64,000 nt of DNA from a virus (IMGVR_UViG_3300028025_000089), one strand, 5' to 3'; positions 3,841 to 46,713 are shown, numbered from the stretch's first letter. A program made the numbers and translations. Notes: generated by a model not told the origin, from the sequence alone.

Positions 3841-4284
3841 ATGAAAAAATTAATTAGATTAACAGAGACAGATTTGGCTCGAATTGTTAGAAAAGTAATC
3901 ATCGAAGAAATGGAAGATGTAAAAACTAATGATACTTTTGACTTTAGTCAAACTGAAAAAAAATTATTTGATAGGTTCCTTACGGAAAAAAACGGTTTTG
4001 AATATGTGGATACTAAAGGAGATGGTGATGTATACGCTTTAAAAAGAAGAGGGTTTACAATAGTATTAATGGTAAAACCATCAAATGACCCATCTAAATT
4101 ATATATTCAAATTTATGTTAAATTACCAATGGGTAAAATTATTAATTATTTAAATGAAGTTCAGGGTAAATCAGGTATGGAGTTAAAAATGACTGACTAT
4201 AATGGATTGATTAAACAAATACAGGGAGCGATTAATTTTGGTAAGGCTCAATATGATTATGACACTCTTCCACCACTAAAATAA
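3841..4284 (+). CDS. Leader-tag family protein
   Basis: MKKLIRLTETDLARIVRKVIIE. Confidence 0.85.
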   Translation: MKKLIRLTETDLARIVRKVIIEEMEDVKTNDTFDFSQTEKKLFDRFLTEKNGFEYVDTKGDGDVYALKRRGFTIVLMVKPSNDPSKLYIQIYVKLPMGKIINYLNEVQGKSGMELKMTDYNGLIKQIQGAINFGKAQYDYDTLPPLK

Positions 4285-27595: not shown

Positions 27596-27604
27596 GTTCT
27601 TTGA
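27596..27604 (+). promoter_or_regulatory. boxA-like antitermination site
   Basis: GTTCTTTGA 5 nt before tRNA-Ser. Confidence 0.65.
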
Positions 27605-27783: not shown

Positions 27784-27946
27784 CAACTTTAAAAATATGG
27801 AAGAAATTTTTTATCAGTTACACGAAGAGTTCATTAACTCTGAAGATTTTAATCAATACGTAAAAGAAATGTTAGAATACGAACATACATTAATTTTACA
27901 ATCTGAAAATAATAACTTATAGTTTAATAAATTATAAGATATTATA

Positions 27947-28018
27947 AGTCGTGTAGCTCAGATGGCTAGAGCAATCCAAATTATGGATGTGTCATTGGTT
28001 CGAATCCTTTTACGACTT
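27947..28018 (+). pseudogene. Degenerate tRNA (5-nt anticodon loop)
   Basis: Good acceptor and D arm; ATCCA-AATTA-TGGAT; mismatched T-stem. Confidence 0.7.
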
Positions 28019-28053
28019 ATAAAAATTAAAAAGTGTTGGTGACAACACTTTTT

Positions 28054-38655: not shown

Positions 38656-38775
38656 TATATTTGTAAAACAATTGAGGGAAACCTTAAAAAAAAAGTAAAA
38701 GAAAAATTTGACTAATTAAAAAATTCTTCTTAACTTTGTAAAACAAATCAGGAAACGTCCTGAATCGTTCTTTGA
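38656..38775 (+). promoter_or_regulatory. Tandem host-type promoters plus boxA
   Basis: TATATTTG 38656; TTTG..TAACTTTG 38731; GTTCTTTGA 38767. Confidence 0.7.
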
Positions 38776-38789
38776 AAAAATAGATTATC

Positions 38790-39670
38790 CAATCAGGAAA
38801 AGTTTTGTCAGATTAATTGACGTGTAATTGAAACGAATGTTTCATCTTGGAATGATAAAGATATTGGGCAGTATATGGTCCATTAAAATAAACCATGAAA
38901 GTGGGATAAAGTGAATTATTTGTGTTAGATAGTTTGCGGCTTCTTCGGGAGCTCGAGTATACAAGCGGGATACCGTTTAACCTTTAGTATCGAGGGCAAC
39001 GCTGTAGAGAAAGTGGTTAGATGATTTGGCGATGTGGGTCGTCAAATTGAGGTGGGAACACCAATAGGAATAACTCGTAGGAATTTTGCAAAACAAAGTG
39101 TTCCAACACTTTCATTGCGAGTTCCAATATTAGAGGATACTTAAAACCGAAAGGTATGATAACAAACGGGTGGTGCCGACATTATCCTTGATGAACTCCT
39201 ACCAAGGGGTTAATCTCGAAGTAGTCTTAAAGTATGGAAATGGGGACATTTCAGAGAGTAGTTGAGTATTTCGTTGTTCAAAAGATAACGAAGCCCGTGA
39301 CGGACCACTACTTTCACAATCCACGACACAAAACTTATGGAAGTTGTTATTTTCCAAAAAATAATTATTACATTAAGGAAAAGTGTCCGTCAGGTTTGAA
39401 TGAAAGGTGACTACATAGTAATGAGCAGTTCATTGCACACAAAGATCCCAAGTCGATGTGTAATTTTTCGAAAAACCTTTAATCCCGCAAGGACGAACTG
39501 GGGAGGCATCCTCGGAAAGAGTTAAAGTAGAATGAGAGTAGTTCAGACCTCAAGGAGTGGTATACCTAAAAGACCGTCACTGAGAAATACTTCTCAAAAG
39601 GAAGTGGATAGGAGTAGAAACAATAATGACTCTAAAGGTTCTCACAAATAGGTGTAATCTCAACCTTTTA
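38790..39670 (+). ncRNA. Large structured ncRNA, GOLLD-like (boundaries approximate)
   Basis: About 880 nt without an ORF of 60 aa or more, visibly GC-richer than flanks, many hairpins including UUCG/GNRA loops; family assignment is from recall only. Confidence 0.6.
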
Positions 39671-39707: not shown

Positions 39708-40268
39708 TTAGGGACGATGTGAATCGATCCCTTTTTTTGTTTTTACTGATTGGTAAATAAGATCAATAAAGTTTAACATTTCATCATGTGTCATTGAATT
39801 TTTTGCATGGTTACATGCGGTGCTTATAAATTGTATGTTTCCTTTCACATACCCTAAATTACTATTGATCCTATCTAAAGAGGCGGTATTGATGTTATTA
39901 CCATTTTCATTTGGTTGAACTAATTTAACACCACTATAAACACAAATGCCACTTTGTATTTCCCATTGATCTAAAAGATCTTGTAAATCAATGTTATACT
40001 CATGATGTCTTTTTTTTAGTCTTCTGAAATGCTCTCTAAGTCCTGTAAATTGATCTCTACGGTTGTTTCTTTGTGGTTCTAAGTATTTAATATTTTCATT
40101 AACATATTGTTTTAAGTGGTTGTGATTATCAATACCACAACATTTTCTTGAGCAATAGTTTTTTCTACCAATTTTTTCGTTTCTAACTATTTCAGACTTA
40201 TCTTTCAAAAACTCAATACCACAAGATGGGTTAGAACATATTGTTAATTCTTTTTTTCTTTGTCTCAT
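39708..40268 (-). CDS. HNH (His-Me finger) endonuclease, likely homing
   Basis: CxxC..C N-terminus; QSGICVYSG..ASLDRINSNLGYVKGNIQFI..CNHAKN. Confidence 0.85.
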   Translation of the reverse strand: MRQRKKELTICSNPSCGIEFLKDKSEIVRNEKIGRKNYCSRKCCGIDNHNHLKQYVNENIKYLEPQRNNRRDQFTGLREHFRRLKKRHHEYNIDLQDLLDQWEIQSGICVYSGVKLVQPNENGNNINTASLDRINSNLGYVKGNIQFISTACNHAKNSMTHDEMLNFIDLIYQSVKTKKGIDSHRP

Positions 40269-40332: not shown

Positions 40333-40363
40333 AAAAAAATCCCACCATAATTAAATAGTGGGA
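40333..40363 (-). terminator. tmRNA terminator
   Basis: ATCCCAC/GTGGGAT with a T-run on the minus strand. Confidence 0.75.
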
Positions 40364-40368
40364 TCAAT

Positions 40369-40786
40369 TGGTGGACCTAGAGGGCTCCGACTCCCTCGTC
40401 CGGCTCGTCTTGTCTAAAAGACAACTACATGTTTAGATCAAGGTTTTTCATACCTTCCGAAATATTTGGTTCCTATTTTTACATTGTTACCAAAAACTGT
40501 GTCGAGTTCACTTTGTTACGGTAGCCCTCTGAACGAGACCGTTGTTTCCTTTTAGAGTGAAAACCAACTCATCTACGACTTCTGTTGCTAGGTTATCTGT
40601 CTGACCGACCCCCCGTTTCCGTATCTAATTAAGCTACAGTAACTTCAGAACCTCTTACTAATCCAAGAGTTTCCATTTTGTTTAGCACATTGCCAGTTGT
40701 GTTTTGAATCAGTTTTTAACGAGATTAATTCAGTCCCGACATGCTTCTTTTATTCAACCAACGCCCGTCAAATCCAATATAGGCCC
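40369..40786 (-). ncRNA. ssrA: tmRNA
   Basis: 5' GGGCCTA..GGATTTGAC, 3' TAGGTCC-ACCA with G3.U70; tag ORF 40694-40629. Confidence 0.92.
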
Positions 40787-40807: not shown

Positions 40808-40831
40808 TCAAAGAACTATAATACAAATATA
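40808..40831 (-). promoter_or_regulatory. Promoter plus boxA for tmRNA
   Basis: Minus strand TATATTTG (40831-40824) then GTTCTTTGA (40816-40808). Confidence 0.7.
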
Positions 40832-40869
40832 ATACAAAGATTTCACTTTGACAATATATTTATAAATAT

Positions 40870-42006
40870 ATGAAAAAAAGACTTCTTATAGAAAATGATG
40901 TTTCAGAAATGACGGATTTTCAAAAAATCCTTCTTTTAAATAAAAGAAAGTTGTCTTCTGATGATGTTGAATTTGAAAGTGATAATTACGAAGACTTGAA
41001 ACTAAATCATGTTCAGATTAAACCTGATGGTCTATTATTTGATTTTGATGATTTAGAACAGTTTTTAAAGTTTTTTCATTATCCTACATTTGAAGAAGGA
41101 ACTGACGGTGAGTGGGATGCGACTAATTATGATCGTATGTATTATGGTCAATATGATTTTTATAGTGAGTGTCAAGATCGAGCATACGACGATTGGAGTG
41201 AAGGATATACTTTAGGATATCTTTGTAGTGAAGCAAAAATCAGATTAAGAGAATTACTTAAAATAATTGCACCTAACCTTGTTGATAATATTAAAGAAGA
41301 CGGTAGTAGAATTGATGATGAAAGTCAAATAACTTCAGTATTGGACAAATACTTTCAACATATTGGAGATGAAATGGATGATATTATATGTTCTGCTAAA
41401 TCGAATGGAACTGAAGCGGGAGTTAAAGAAGCGATTGAAAAAGAATATTGTAATACACTTAGTGAATATGGTGTTGAAAAATGGGGTAAGTGGTGTTTTG
41501 GATTATACTTTATAAGTTGGGGTAATCTGGTTCAGTTATTTGTTGAAGATGGTGAATTTGATGTAAACGCTCTTGATGTATTAATTCAAAAAATCGATAA
41601 AAAATTTAGACACGGTCTTCCTGAATATTACGAAATGGAATACTATGTTATGGACAATGAAGTATTTGAATCTGAGTCTTGTGAAAAATTGGTTAATTTA
41701 ATTGATGAGTATATAGAAAGAGCCCAAGAAGAATTTTCTTCTGAATATATTAAAATTATTAATAAACTCTCATCTTTGGATTTATTATATAGAAGAGAAA
41801 TTCCAGGTCAAAAAAATTTATTTATAAAAGTGGATTCAGTTGATCCTGAAACATTAAAGGTAAAGTATCTTATTGGGTCAGGAGGTTATTTTGGTGATCG
41901 TAAATATGGTTTGGCAACTGCTGATGAGGTAATTGCAATGGCAACTCAGCCAGGTTTATTCAACCCAACTGAGTTTAGAATCGATCCAGGTCAATTAAGA
42001 CGATAA
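40870..42006 (+). CDS. Acidic hypothetical protein
   Basis: 378 aa; ATATTTAT upstream. Confidence 0.85.
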   Translation: MKKRLLIENDVSEMTDFQKILLLNKRKLSSDDVEFESDNYEDLKLNHVQIKPDGLLFDFDDLEQFLKFFHYPTFEEGTDGEWDATNYDRMYYGQYDFYSECQDRAYDDWSEGYTLGYLCSEAKIRLRELLKIIAPNLVDNIKEDGSRIDDESQITSVLDKYFQHIGDEMDDIICSAKSNGTEAGVKEAIEKEYCNTLSEYGVEKWGKWCFGLYFISWGNLVQLFVEDGEFDVNALDVLIQKIDKKFRHGLPEYYEMEYYVMDNEVFESESCEKLVNLIDEYIERAQEEFSSEYIKIINKLSSLDLLYRREIPGQKNLFIKVDSVDPETLKVKYLIGSGGYFGDRKYGLATADEVIAMATQPGLFNPTEFRIDPGQLRR

Positions 42007-43022
42007 CGCTCTTTTAGAATCTTGTATAATTTTAAACCATCTTCATCATCAATATAAAAGTGGTTTTCATCGTATATGTCGGCGATTATGAACCCATCTT
42101 TTTCTTCAATCACATCAATAGATGTTAGTTGGTGAACCTCATCGTAAAATGGGCTTTCATCAACATCATCAAAATTATATAAAGATTTAACAGGTTTTGG
42201 TTCATCGTATTTGAATTCGTATTTTTTCAAACCAAGATCTTTAACCATGTTTTTTCCAGCTTCGATTGCTCTTTTAACATCATCTATACATACAAATTCA
42301 TTTGCTGTGTGCATATTATAATAACCACATGACATATTGATACAAGATAGGTCAGATAGTTGTTTAATCATCATAATATCGGTATATGGGTGAGACTGAA
42401 CCAACATCTCGTTATTAAACCCTTTTGTGATTGATCGAATTGCGGTATTGAAGAACTCTCCTTCTTTATCAAATAAAGTGGTTCCCATGCAAGCCTGTGA
42501 AATTAAATGATCACCAGGTGCGTCATATTGGACGCAATAACCAACATCTTTTAAAAACTCTTTATCTACCAATTTTGATCCGTGGCAACCTGTTTCTTCT
42601 GAAACGAAAAACGCAACTTTAACTTTATCTAATTGAGAAAGAAGTTCCAAACAAATATAAATTCCACATTTGTCATCACCACCAATTCCTGTTGGGTTAT
42701 CGTCTTTATCATATGCCTTTAAACATAATACTTGATCTCTTCCAAAATCTTTTCCAAATGTAAATGGACGAATAAGATATTCTTCTTTAACAATTATTTC
42801 ATCAACCAGTTCGTGAACCGTGTCGGTGTGAGAAATAAACATTGGGTAAAATTCACCTTCATCCAACGTTCCTTTAGTTGCATATATGTTAAGGTTTCCG
42901 TCACAGATTAAAGTAACTCCTTCCATATCACCAATGGTAGAAATTAAATACTCCACCATTTTAATTTCCTCATAAGTCTTGGTTGGGACAGATAAGAGTT
43001 CTTTAAATTTATTTAGATTCAT
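41991..43022 (-). CDS. M20/M28-family metallopeptidase
   Basis: SHTDTVH..GIGGDDKCG..FFVSEETGCHGS..QYDAPG..GYYNMHT. Confidence 0.88.
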   Translation of the reverse strand: MNLNKFKELLSVPTKTYEEIKMVEYLISTIGDMEGVTLICDGNLNIYATKGTLDEGEFYPMFISHTDTVHELVDEIIVKEEYLIRPFTFGKDFGRDQVLCLKAYDKDDNPTGIGGDDKCGIYICLELLSQLDKVKVAFFVSEETGCHGSKLVDKEFLKDVGYCVQYDAPGDHLISQACMGTTLFDKEGEFFNTAIRSITKGFNNEMLVQSHPYTDIMMIKQLSDLSCINMSCGYYNMHTANEFVCIDDVKRAIEAGKNMVKDLGLKKYEFKYDEPKPVKSLYNFDDVDESPFYDEVHQLTSIDVIEEKDGFIIADIYDENHFYIDDEDGLKLYKILKERYRLN

Positions 43023-44141: not shown

Positions 44142-46181
44142 TTATTCTTTCTTTTTTCTTGTTCTTTTAACTTTTTCTTCTTTATTAGAAATTATAACAT
44201 CATCATTTTCGACTTTCAAAATATATTCTTTGTTTTCTTCAATTTCCATCATTAAGATTTTTTCGGAAATTAAATCTTCAATTTTATTTTGAATTGCTCT
44301 TTTGATAGGTCTTGCACCAAAAGTTTCGTCAAAACCAACTTTAGATAGATAATCAACCAAATCTTGTTCATAAGAAAAATAGTATTTTTTCTCTGAAACT
44401 CTTTTTAATAATTTGTCAATCTCTAACTTGGTAATAACGTCAATGTGTGGTTTTTCTAAAGAGTTAAAAATTACAACATCATCAATTCTATTTAAAAACT
44501 CAGGTGAGAAAAACTTTTTCATTTCTTTCTTCAATACATCTTGTTTTTCTTCTTCTTTAACAACATCACTTTTTTGAGGTTGGAATCCCATACCAGTTCC
44601 AAAGTCTTGTAATTTTTTAACTCCAATGTTGGAAGTCATAATAATCAAACAATTTTTGAAGTTAATTTTACGACCTAATGAATCTGTAATGTGGCCATCA
44701 TCTAACAACTGAAGAAGTGTTGAGAAAATGTCTTTGTGAGCTTTCTCGATCTCATCAAACAATACAACAGAATAAGGTTTGTTTTTAACTTGTTCAGTTA
44801 ATTGACCACCTTCATCATGACCAACATATCCTGGAGGTGATCCAATCAAACGAGAAATGGTATGTTTCTCTTGATATTCACTCATATCTACACGAATCAT
44901 ATTGTCTTCACTACCAAAGATTTCTTTCGCCAATTGTTTTGCCAAATACGTTTTACCAACACCCGTAGATCCCAAGAAAATAAATGAACCGATTGGTTTA
45001 TTTGGATCTTTGATTCCAATTCTATTTCTTCTAATTGCTTTTGAAATTTTATTCACCGCTTCTTCTTGACCAATAACCTTTGAATTTAAACTTTCATTTA
45101 AATTAATTAATGAATTTCTTTCGTCCAAATTAATATTGGAAATTGGAATTTTGGTCATGTTGGAAACCACCTCATAAATTAAATCTTCAGGAATACTTCT
45201 TTTACTATTCAATAAACTTTCTTCGAATTTCTTTTTTTCTAAATCCAACTTTGATAAAACATTACGTTCTCTATCTCTTAACTCGGCAGCCAACTCATAT
45301 TTTTGTTGTTTAATAACATTCATTTTTTCTTGTTTGATGGCGTTTGCTTCGTCCTTTAATTTTTCGATTTCTTCAGGTAATTTGATGTCAATTTGCATTC
45401 TTGATCCAACCTCATCCAAAATATCAAATGCTTTATCAGGAAACTCACGATCTGTAATATATCGATCAGCCAACTCAACAAATGTCCAAAGAGTTTTATC
45501 ATCATAAGTCACTTTGTGGTGATCTTCATATTTTGATTTACTCATCTTTAAAATTTCAAATGTTTCTTCTTTTGAAGATGGATCAACAATAACCTTTTGA
45601 AATCTTCGATCTAACGCACCGTCTTTTTCAAAGTGTTTTCTATATTCATCCAAAGTTGTTGCTCCAACACATTGAATATCTCCTCTTGATAAAGCTGGTT
45701 TTAAAATGTTTGACGCATCTAAAGAACCTGAACTATTTCCTGCACCAACCATAGTGTGAATTTCATCAATAAATAAAATGATGTTTGGGGTTGCTTGTAA
45801 CTCTTCGATAATAACTTTCATTCGTTCTTCGAATTGACCTCTATATTTTGTTCCTGCGACTAATGAATTTAAATCTAAAGATACAATTCTTTTATCCATT
45901 AAATTTTTTGGACATTCACCGTTGTGAATCATCATTGCAAGACCCTCCACAATTGCTGTCTTTCCTGCACCTGGTTCACCAATAATAATTGGGTTATTTT
46001 TCTTTCTTCGAGATAAAATCTGAGCGATTCTAAAAATTTCTTTTTGTCTTCCAATTACAGGATCTAATTTCCCGTCTTGTGCTAACTTATTTAAGTCTTT
46101 ACTAAAATTATCTAATACAGGAGTCCCGCTATCAGATTTCTTTTTTGATTTGTCATTTCCTTCGTCCATAAATTCTAACAT
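44142..46181 (-). CDS. clpC: ClpC-type AAA+ ATPase lacking the N-terminal domain
   Basis: GEPGAGKT, LFIDEIH, UVR middle domain, GSTGVGKT, LFDEIEK, GMGF loop, GARP. Confidence 0.93.
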   Translation of the reverse strand: MLEFMDEGNDKSKKKSDSGTPVLDNFSKDLNKLAQDGKLDPVIGRQKEIFRIAQILSRRKKNNPIIIGEPGAGKTAIVEGLAMMIHNGECPKNLMDKRIVSLDLNSLVAGTKYRGQFEERMKVIIEELQATPNIILFIDEIHTMVGAGNSSGSLDASNILKPALSRGDIQCVGATTLDEYRKHFEKDGALDRRFQKVIVDPSSKEETFEILKMSKSKYEDHHKVTYDDKTLWTFVELADRYITDREFPDKAFDILDEVGSRMQIDIKLPEEIEKLKDEANAIKQEKMNVIKQQKYELAAELRDRERNVLSKLDLEKKKFEESLLNSKRSIPEDLIYEVVSNMTKIPISNINLDERNSLINLNESLNSKVIGQEEAVNKISKAIRRNRIGIKDPNKPIGSFIFLGSTGVGKTYLAKQLAKEIFGSEDNMIRVDMSEYQEKHTISRLIGSPPGYVGHDEGGQLTEQVKNKPYSVVLFDEIEKAHKDIFSTLLQLLDDGHITDSLGRKINFKNCLIIMTSNIGVKKLQDFGTGMGFQPQKSDVVKEEEKQDVLKKEMKKFFSPEFLNRIDDVVIFNSLEKPHIDVITKLEIDKLLKRVSEKKYYFSYEQDLVDYLSKVGFDETFGARPIKRAIQNKIEDLISEKILMMEIEENKEYILKVENDDVIISNKEEKVKRTRKKKE

Positions 46182-46350: not shown

Positions 46351-46713
46351 ATGTTTAATTGGAACGAATTTGATAAATTATTTAATGAATTTTTTTCTTC
46401 ATCATTTGATGATAAAAACTGGACTAAAAATACTTATAGGTCACCAGATGGTTTGTATTCTATGTCTTATATGACAAGAAATTTTAATAACTCAAATCCG
46501 TCAGATGAATTATATGTATTGAAAGAAAAATTAAACTTGGCAATTAAAGAAGAAAATTTTGAGGAAGCTGTAAATTTAAGAGATGAAATTAAAAAGTTAG
46601 AAAAGAACAAAGAAGAGTTATCAAAGTTAAAAATTAAGTTGGACGAATGTATTCGAAACCAAGACTTTGAAAAGGCGATAGAATATCGAGACAAAATAAA
46701 ATCTCTTAAATAA
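46351..46713 (+). CDS. Protein with two UVR (UvrB/UvrC) motifs, McsA-like adaptor candidate
   Basis: LNLAIKEENFEEAVNLRDEIK; CIRNQDFEKAIEYRDKI. Confidence 0.8.
   Translation: MFNWNEFDKLFNEFFSSSFDDKNWTKNTYRSPDGLYSMSYMTRNFNNSNPSDELYVLKEKLNLAIKEENFEEAVNLRDEIKKLEKNKEELSKLKIKLDECIRNQDFEKAIEYRDKIKSLK

Follow-up and report, generated by a model that had tools for sequence, protein, structure and literature searches.

Phage-encoded tmRNAs have been described in cluster C mycobacteriophages (Bxz1, Catera, and others), in Bacillus phage G, and in huge phages (PMC4131195; PMC7162821), and one phage-borne variant, the TLD-only RNA of the mycobacteriophage DS6A type, inhibits tmRNA (PMC4131195). Tags in the tmRNA database most often have 10 residues (PMC11915505), and the T-loop feature that is broken by the allele discussed below is reported to be highly conserved in tmRNA (PMC1168896). 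Group I introns in tmRNA T-psi-C loops are already known (PMC11915505), and a precedent for mobile DNA acting at an adjoining conserved gene is provided by F-CphI, a free-standing enzyme with an EndoVII motif that cuts intron-less psbA alleles, with the intron protecting its carrier (cyanophage S-PM2; collaborative homing, PMC6083498).

The locus considered here lies in a viral sequence (the window, that is, the whole 64,000-nt stretch of DNA that was analyzed), in which positions 40369–40786 on the minus strand are a tmRNA gene with conserved frame, sequence, and structure. The Rfam tmRNA model is matched over its full length (RF00023, model positions 1–374; score 78.5 bits, gathering threshold 47 bits, E 8.8e-29). 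The features of the gene and of its flanking signals are as follows.

40369–40786, minus strand: tmRNA (ssrA) of the standard one-piece form, 418 nt (RF00023, 78.5 bits; 141 relatives).
40780–40786, minus strand: 5' strand of the acceptor stem, GGGCCUA, with the G3 of G3.U70; pairs with 40373–40379.
40369–40379, minus strand: 3' strand of the acceptor stem, UAGGUCC, followed by the discriminator A and the encoded CCA (direct sequence reading).
40767–40775, minus strand: D-loop analogue, GGAUUUGAC, nearly invariant across the tmRNA relatives.
40705–40738, minus strand: pseudoknot PK1 (Rfam alignment).
40629–40694, minus strand: tag frame, with resume codon GGC at 40692–40694, 21 codons encoding GNVLNKMETLGLVRGSEVTVA, and stop codon UAA at 40629–40631 (140 of 141 relatives).
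40380–40397, minus strand: T-arm, with stem GAGGG/CCCUC and the 8-nt loop AGUCGGAG at 40385–40392 (direct reading and relatives).
40826–40854, minus strand: promoter-like TTGTCA-17-TATATT upstream of the tmRNA (consensus scan, 10/12 matches; kept in the nearest relative, G001).
40808–40816, minus strand: boxA-like GTTCTTTGA within the leader of the tmRNA (1.16 copies expected in the window, six present).
40338–40365, minus strand: intrinsic terminator hairpin and U-run (terminator scan, 11 pairs), starting 3 nt past the CCA.

The discriminator A and the encoded CCA are read at 40369–40372, and a 4-nt linker, UAUU (40776–40779), precedes the D-loop analogue. Many pairs of helix 2 switch between AU and GC among the relatives, and within PK1 the stem pair at alignment columns 52/70 occurs as AU (23), CG (21), and GC (11). 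When 55 unique sequences are folded jointly with RNAalifold, 64 pairs are predicted, 24 of them with double-sided compensatory changes, which fall in helix 2, PK1, and the last hairpin. The PK2–PK4 region is present and mosaic among the relatives, with a low Rfam posterior probability and clear covariation in the last hairpin only. As for the leader, the six boxA-like copies were reached in none of 100 shuffles, and five of them precede stable-RNA genes; the copies other than that of the tmRNA are on the plus strand at 2673–2681, 27596–27604, 29898–29906, 32041–32049, and 38767–38775, with four lying ahead of tRNA blocks and GOLLD.

An earlier, sequence-only reading of this DNA had proposed a phage tmRNA at these positions, with an intact G3.U70 pair, an intact CCA, and a noncanonical T-loop of 8 nt. 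The end-to-end match to RF00023 bears out the first of these claims, both the wobble pair and the CCA can be read in the sequence, and the loop is confirmed as AGUCGGAG, conserved in 35 of the 122 complete genes of the family described below. ARAGORN, which the same reading had named as a check, called no tmRNA in the window or in the sub-region. The loop has 8 nt on a 5-bp stem, against 7 nt in the Rfam consensus, and departs from the canonical UUCRANY; this oddity lowers confidence in the activity of the window tmRNA, not in its homology.

IMG/VR was scanned both for a 22-nt segment of the tag and for a degenerate PK1 anchor, and the two scans gathered 141 related tmRNA genes with a readable tag, 122 of them complete. 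They lie on contigs of freshwater phages of ~270–300 kb (up to 304 kb for the largest contig carrying a relative), and the family is abundant in lake viromes, dozens of metagenomes having contributed at least 141 contigs. Because the same frame, tag length, and pairing recur at 141 IMG/VR loci, the features of the window tmRNA are not due to chance. The nearest relative, G001, carries the same gene with a canonical UUCGACU T-loop and compensated stems, and here too ARAGORN did not find the tmRNA; across the family, it recovers 15 of the 122 complete genes, mostly with the wrong tag, compared to 33 of 33 Bacteroidota controls. As ARAGORN finds about one-eighth of the family, these genes are probably under-counted in phage surveys. 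Searches of GenBank phages with the tmRNA gene and the surrounding 10 kb, using blastn and megablast, gave no match. This large freshwater phage tmRNA family, mostly missed by standard tools, is new.

All 122 complete genes have G3.U70 and the discriminator A (A73). The acceptor stem occurs in 14 versions, of which 10 are fully complementary and 4 are single-locus combinations with one or two mismatches, and the T-stem occurs in 11 compensated versions. The family is mosaic, in that the tRNA-like domain, the tag, and the pseudoknot modules recombine. Three chimeric tmRNAs (L031:12635–13027, L065:973–1378, and L067:2016–2406) combine acceptor strands from different classes, with one or two mismatches, and are either recent recombinants or assembly chimeras. 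In a further relative, L106, a deletion cuts the tag to 13 codons (GNVLDNLSVVGLN), such that the frame enters the last hairpin and most of the pseudoknot region is gone.

The tag comprises 21 codons in 140 of the 141 relatives, with a conserved stop codon, and its 41 nucleotide versions encode 24 peptides that conform to the consensus G[ND]VLx[KN][ML][ES]x[LIV]GL[VLI]xxx[EQD]V[TSA]V[AS]. The columns that vary number 16, 6, and 19 at the first, second, and third codon positions, respectively, the second being the least variable. Val, Leu, Gly, and Ala codons switch synonymously, Arg14 is kept via AGA, CGU, and CGC, and the two alternative frames across the region give no constant length. The constant length and the synonymous switching therefore show that the frame chosen in the sequence-only reading is right, and that the peptide is under purifying selection. 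The claim that it has 21 encoded residues and lacks an ALAA end also stands, as GNVLNKMETLGLVRGSEVTVA ends in VTVA. Conservation covers the N-terminal and central parts (G[ND]VL..., and an invariant G at position 11), and not the C-terminus alone.

The Bacteroidota are the presumed host phylum. Naming the host via the Clp ATPase described below was attempted and rejected, the nearest bacterial homologues being scattered over many phyla. In a sample of 33 Bacteroidota tmRNAs, all T-loops have 7 nt, ARAGORN finds every gene, and the tags have 9–10 residues and an ALAA or AMAA end, one doubtful ARAGORN call aside. That call concerns a Sediminibacterium MAG (L258:1501–1870), where ARAGORN gives the tag AAADSKQKEMLQQKAVIVA and the usual resume context gives GNTQYAMAA. 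The resume context (A/U)CU|GGC AAY is common to the phage tmRNA and to Chitinophagaceae tmRNAs, and forms part of the basis for presuming a Bacteroidota host. The phage tag has about twice the length of Bacteroidota tags and is unrelated to them past the first two residues. The tag had been called long and noncanonical from the outset, and 21 residues ending in VTVA, set against 9–10 residues ending in AA in the 33 Bacteroidota genes, agree with that description. A conserved phage tag of 22 residues (Ala plus 21) that differs from those of the presumed host phylum is new.

Turning to the partners that such an RNA needs, SmpB and ClpP are each encoded in one of five near-complete relatives (G004 only; 143 and 160 bits, respectively), and neither was found in the 64-kb window. 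Their absence from the other four relatives indicates that host partners are probably used, and the phage tmRNA should depend on host AlaRS, SmpB, EF-Tu, and RNase P; we regard the use of host partners as likely. The 7-nt alleles that lack an encoded CCA (36 of 86) should also need the host CCA enzyme. An smpB gene is present in the flank of one further tmRNA locus. In the 296-kb relative G004, the genes for SmpB, ClpP, and tmRNA are at 138238–138636, 68265–68786, and 145949–146345, respectively, with smpB 7 kb from the tmRNA. A search of the five relatives for a CCA-adding enzyme (PF01743) found none, as did a search for a T4 Rnl1-type ligase (PF09511), which is a weak negative since the control genomes were silent too. 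The proposed link of the tmRNA to tRNA damage, which was also part of the sequence-only reading, thus appears to have no support in these data.

The genes that adjoin the tmRNA on its upstream side are the following.

40870–42006, plus strand: X2, a conserved 378-aa protein, divergent from the tmRNA (syntenic in 70 loci).
41991–43022, minus strand: M20/M42-type peptidase (Pfam PF05343 and PF01546; PHROG peptidase, E 2.7e-36; 110 tmRNA loci).
44142–46181, minus strand: two-ring Clp ATPase, ClpC-like, without an N-domain, a candidate unfoldase (Pfam AAA_2, AAA_lid_9, and ClpB_D2-small; 89 loci).

X2 has 304 database homologues and matches no Pfam or PHROG family; its AlphaFold model (pLDDT 67) gave no Foldseek match in the PDB at E ≤ 0.001. 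The Clp ATPase matches its PHROG profile from position 161 on, and contains a pair of Walker A motifs and a GYVG pore loop, as well as a GMGF loop at the position of ClpP-docking loops. Other stable-RNA genes were seen in the window. A full-length GOLLD RNA (RF02032, 313 bits) lies at 39254–39666 on the plus strand, convergent to the tmRNA, and this neighborhood recurs in three relatives (L016, L059, and L095). Also on the plus strand, ARAGORN calls a tRNA to which it assigns no identity at 32358–32433, with a four-base anticodon (ggaa; Rfam tRNA, 36 bits), and a tRNA-Asn with the unusual anticodon AUU at 27946–28019 (Rfam, 38.7 bits); a normal tRNA-Asn(GUU) is present in the window as well, at 30515–30587.

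Taking these observations together, we are fairly confident that the gene is a functional, standard tmRNA encoded by an AT-rich, T4-like freshwater phage of ~300 kb. It would be transcribed as its own unit, comprising the promoter-like site, the boxA-like leader, the gene, and the terminator, and charged with alanine by host AlaRS via G3.U70 and A73. Host SmpB and EF-Tu would then deliver it to the ribosome, with SmpB taken to be that of the host because most relatives have no smpB. The stalled ribosome would resume at GGC, append Ala and the 21 residues ending in VTVA, and stop at UAA. The tag, finally, would direct the products to an AAA+ protease, which could be host ClpXP or the phage ClpC-like ATPase acting with host ClpP, a step that we favor, if only by a little. 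With a conserved tag beside a candidate unfoldase, the fate of phage-tagged proteins is directly testable.

The second of these two routes can be taken further, in the direction of the sequence-only reading, which had products redirected or spared relative to host ClpXP. The tag would then be an orthogonal degron for the phage ClpC-like ATPase and host ClpP (and perhaps the small, divergently encoded protein at 46351–46713 on the plus strand), such that rescued products would be cleared without competition for host ClpXP, or in escape from it. In keeping with such private proteolysis, the tag shows strong conservation and does not resemble those of the presumed host phylum, the Clp ATPase and the M20/M42 peptidase adjoin the tmRNA in 89 and 110 loci, respectively, the GMGF loop of the ATPase is where ClpP-docking loops lie, and most relatives have no ClpP of their own. 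Co-variation of the tag with the ATPase was considered as more specific evidence. Clp similarity is higher within tag classes than between them (0.83 vs 0.66; 0/300 permutations), but the peptidase is associated with tag class too, and among the neighbors it is X2 whose inter-locus similarity tracks tag class most closely (a difference of 0.25, against 0.17 for Clp). As X2 follows tag class at least as strongly as Clp does, the association between tag and Clp amounts to ordinary linkage and shared descent, and we rejected tag–Clp co-evolution as specific evidence. Furthermore, none of the window ORFs searched was found to have a tag-like C-terminus or the tag motif. In E. coli, hydrophobic C-termini of the ...VA type (LVA, for example) serve ClpXP well as degrons, and so the lack of ALAA does not mean escape from ClpXP. 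We therefore consider an orthogonal degron of this kind unlikely.

A less probable alternative is that the tag is not a degradation signal at all, but a stabilizing, sorting, or regulatory peptide, or that it is the freeing of the ribosome alone that matters. Twice as long as usual, the tag is conserved in its N-terminal and central parts too, and it has no identified partner, as would suit a non-degradative role; however, ribosome release alone would not conserve the length and sequence of the peptide, and its hydrophobic, Ala-ending C-terminus resembles known degrons. To our knowledge, every characterized tmRNA tag acts as a degron. On balance, this explanation strikes us as quite improbable.

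The T-loop raises a separate question. Among the 122 complete genes, 35 have an 8-nt loop, 86 the canonical 7 nt, and one a loop of 6 nt. The 8-nt loop reads AGUCGGAG in 34 of the 35 genes and AGUCAGAG in one (a G-to-A change), and it comes from at least 15 metagenomes, combined with four compensated T-stems and six versions of the acceptor. All 35 genes retain G3.U70, A73, CCA, and the 21-codon frame, and all 35 encode CCA, compared to 50 of the 86 genes with a 7-nt loop. A 4-nt 5' linker goes with 34 of the 35 8-nt loops. Compensation between loop and linker length (8 + 4 vs 7 + 5) was considered and rejected, as the 4-nt linker also accompanies a 7-nt loop in 13 genes, which leaves an association only. 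The lineages of the neighboring genes (Clp, peptidase, X2, and Pyr) do not predict loop class, and phages with 99%-identical Clp carry either the 7-nt or the 8-nt class, from which it follows that similar phages exchange these alleles, which presumably function in the same hosts. Judged by its conservation, the 8-nt loop is a maintained allele rather than an error or decay, and such a maintained allele is new; we infer its activity from conservation only.

A third form of the loop is found in six relatives (L016, L059, L085, L095, L115, and L172), in which a group I intron splits the T-loop after UU (UU|CGAGU). In the four loci scanned, the introns score 86–96 bits against RF00028 (that in L016 is at 3940–4164 on the minus strand), and the joined exons restore UUCGAGU. 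The natural 7-nt, 8-nt, and intron-split alleles in similar phages provide a ready-made test of how much variation in T-loop geometry is tolerated.

Behind the tmRNA lies one further gene, which bears on these alleles.

39708–40268, minus strand: optional free-standing HNH/EndoVII-like ORF, 186 aa, ~100 nt behind the tmRNA (PHROG profiles).

Among PHROG profiles, this ORF matches those for endonuclease (E 4e-21), endonuclease VII (E 1e-15), and HNH, the E values of these matches extending to 9e-12, and it has homologues in 748 phage records, the best of which are annotated as "endonuclease" in uncultured human-faecal phages (cr56_1, cr113_1, and similar; 44% identity). Searches against Pfam, NCBIfam, and PDB sequences gave no match, and the AlphaFold model (pLDDT 51) was too poor for searching. 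Residues D132, N144, C152, N153, and K156 are invariant, and where EndoVII has DHDH the ORF has DR(I)D/N, with Arg replacing His.

Of the 113 loci whose flanks are long enough, 12 carry the ORF, in each case ~100 nt 3' of the tmRNA and before GOLLD. All 12 carriers are among the 37 loci with an unusual T-arm (5 of 29 with an 8-nt loop, 5 of 6 with an intron, and 2 of 2 with a GAGCG/CGCUC stem, a class defined after seeing the data), compared to none of the 76 with a common T-arm. The Fisher p-value for this association is 3.7e-7, or roughly 0.03 when the 12 carriers, which represent three lineages, are counted as three events. These lineages follow the T-arm: the window copy and the five copies most similar to it (79–98% identity) are all behind an 8-nt loop, five copies at 64–70% identity are behind intron-split T-loops, and two copies at 63% identity are behind the sole two genes with the GAGCG/CGCUC stem. 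The ORF is missing from 24 of the 29 8-nt loci.

This pattern fits homing-endonuclease immunity, with putative cleavage of the T-arm by the ORF product, and we consider a neighboring selfish endonuclease to be a better explanation of the altered T-loop than a changed function of the tmRNA. A link between T-arm variation and a neighboring, putatively selfish endonuclease would be new. The 8-nt loop would then involve no retargeting, but would be an allele that remains functional and is protected, at the DNA level, from the free-standing HNH/EndoVII-like homing endonuclease whose gene lies ~100 nt downstream, while related phages would gain the same protection from a group I intron in the T-loop or from a changed T-stem. 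We put this forward tentatively, as a reading that falls just short of an even chance. Homing would also explain the shuffled tRNA-like domains, and the chimeric acceptor stems of L031, L065, and L067 are as would be expected of gene-conversion tracts that end inside the gene. If the link to the endonuclease holds, this is a homing endonuclease aimed at the tmRNA gene, with three escape routes in one family.

The two lines of argument can also be combined with a different outcome for the tag, which would be read by the phage ClpC-like ATPase with host ClpP, or be non-degradative, stalled ribosomes being recycled during infection in a private circuit that bypasses host ClpXP, while homing reshapes the T-loop to a working 8-nt form. 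We think it rather doubtful that this combination is correct.

Two further explanations for the loop start from an RNA that does not work as a tmRNA should. In the first, the RNA would be a decoy or an inhibitor, soaking up host SmpB or blocking trans-translation, with the 8-nt T-loop making it a deliberately poor substrate. Most relatives have no smpB of their own, the T-loop is noncanonical, and there is a precedent for the inhibition of tmRNA in the DS6A type (PMC4131195). Yet a decoy has no need of a reading frame, and here conservation extends to the frame with its stop codon, to PK1, and to the resume context, with 7-nt and 8-nt alleles found in otherwise near-identical phage backgrounds, which makes a decoy very unlikely. 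Least probable of all is a decaying or crippled gene, with the 8-nt loop as a defect in a gene no longer needed: the Rfam scores of the 8-nt alleles (65–78 bits, vs 103–118 bits for the 7-nt alleles) and the truncation of the tag to 13 codons by the deletion in L106 point that way, but the loop is identical in all but the one G-to-A variant among 35 genes, the stems and acceptors are compensated, and the pair G3.U70, A73, CCA, and the 21-codon frame are retained throughout.

In comparison with the standard one-piece tmRNA (RF00023), the window RNA has the same G3.U70, A73, CCA, D-loop analogue, and long helix 2, and, as in that form, PK1 precedes the resume codon, the stop codon comes shortly before a hairpin, and a pseudoknot region is present. 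It differs from Bacteroidota tmRNAs in being a phage gene, in its 21-residue tag, and in its 8-nt T-loop, and its relatives are mostly without smpB. As with known phage tmRNAs, the setting is a large, tRNA-rich phage with its own ssrA, and some huge phages also encode smpB, as relative G004 does; however, the freshwater genes form a separate family, with a conserved tag of their own and a noncanonical T-loop allele. ARAGORN was the tool of the earlier phage tmRNA surveys, and the freshwater family is mostly invisible to it. Like the TLD-only RNA of DS6A, the window RNA has a tRNA-like domain encoded by a phage and has to compete for host SmpB, but it retains a complete and conserved mRNA-like domain.

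The closest counterparts of the T-arm variation are found elsewhere. The six phage relatives with a group I intron in the T-loop resemble the known tmRNAs with T-loop introns (PMC11915505), except that the intron follows loop position 2 rather than the usual position 7, and that the genes are phage-borne and stand beside a free-standing endonuclease gene; the window gene itself is intronless. Compared to F-CphI and the psbA intron, and to the intronless homing of the T4 seg and mob genes (PMC6083498, PMC2790892), the arrangement is alike in that an optional, free-standing gene of the EndoVII/HNH type lies between two conserved genes of a T4-type phage, and in that the adjoining conserved gene holds an intron or a variant at the expected target site. 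It differs in that the presumed target is an RNA gene, at the T-arm of the tmRNA, in that the EndoVII histidines are replaced, and in that protection in the window lineage would stem from the 8-nt loop variant, and not from an intron.
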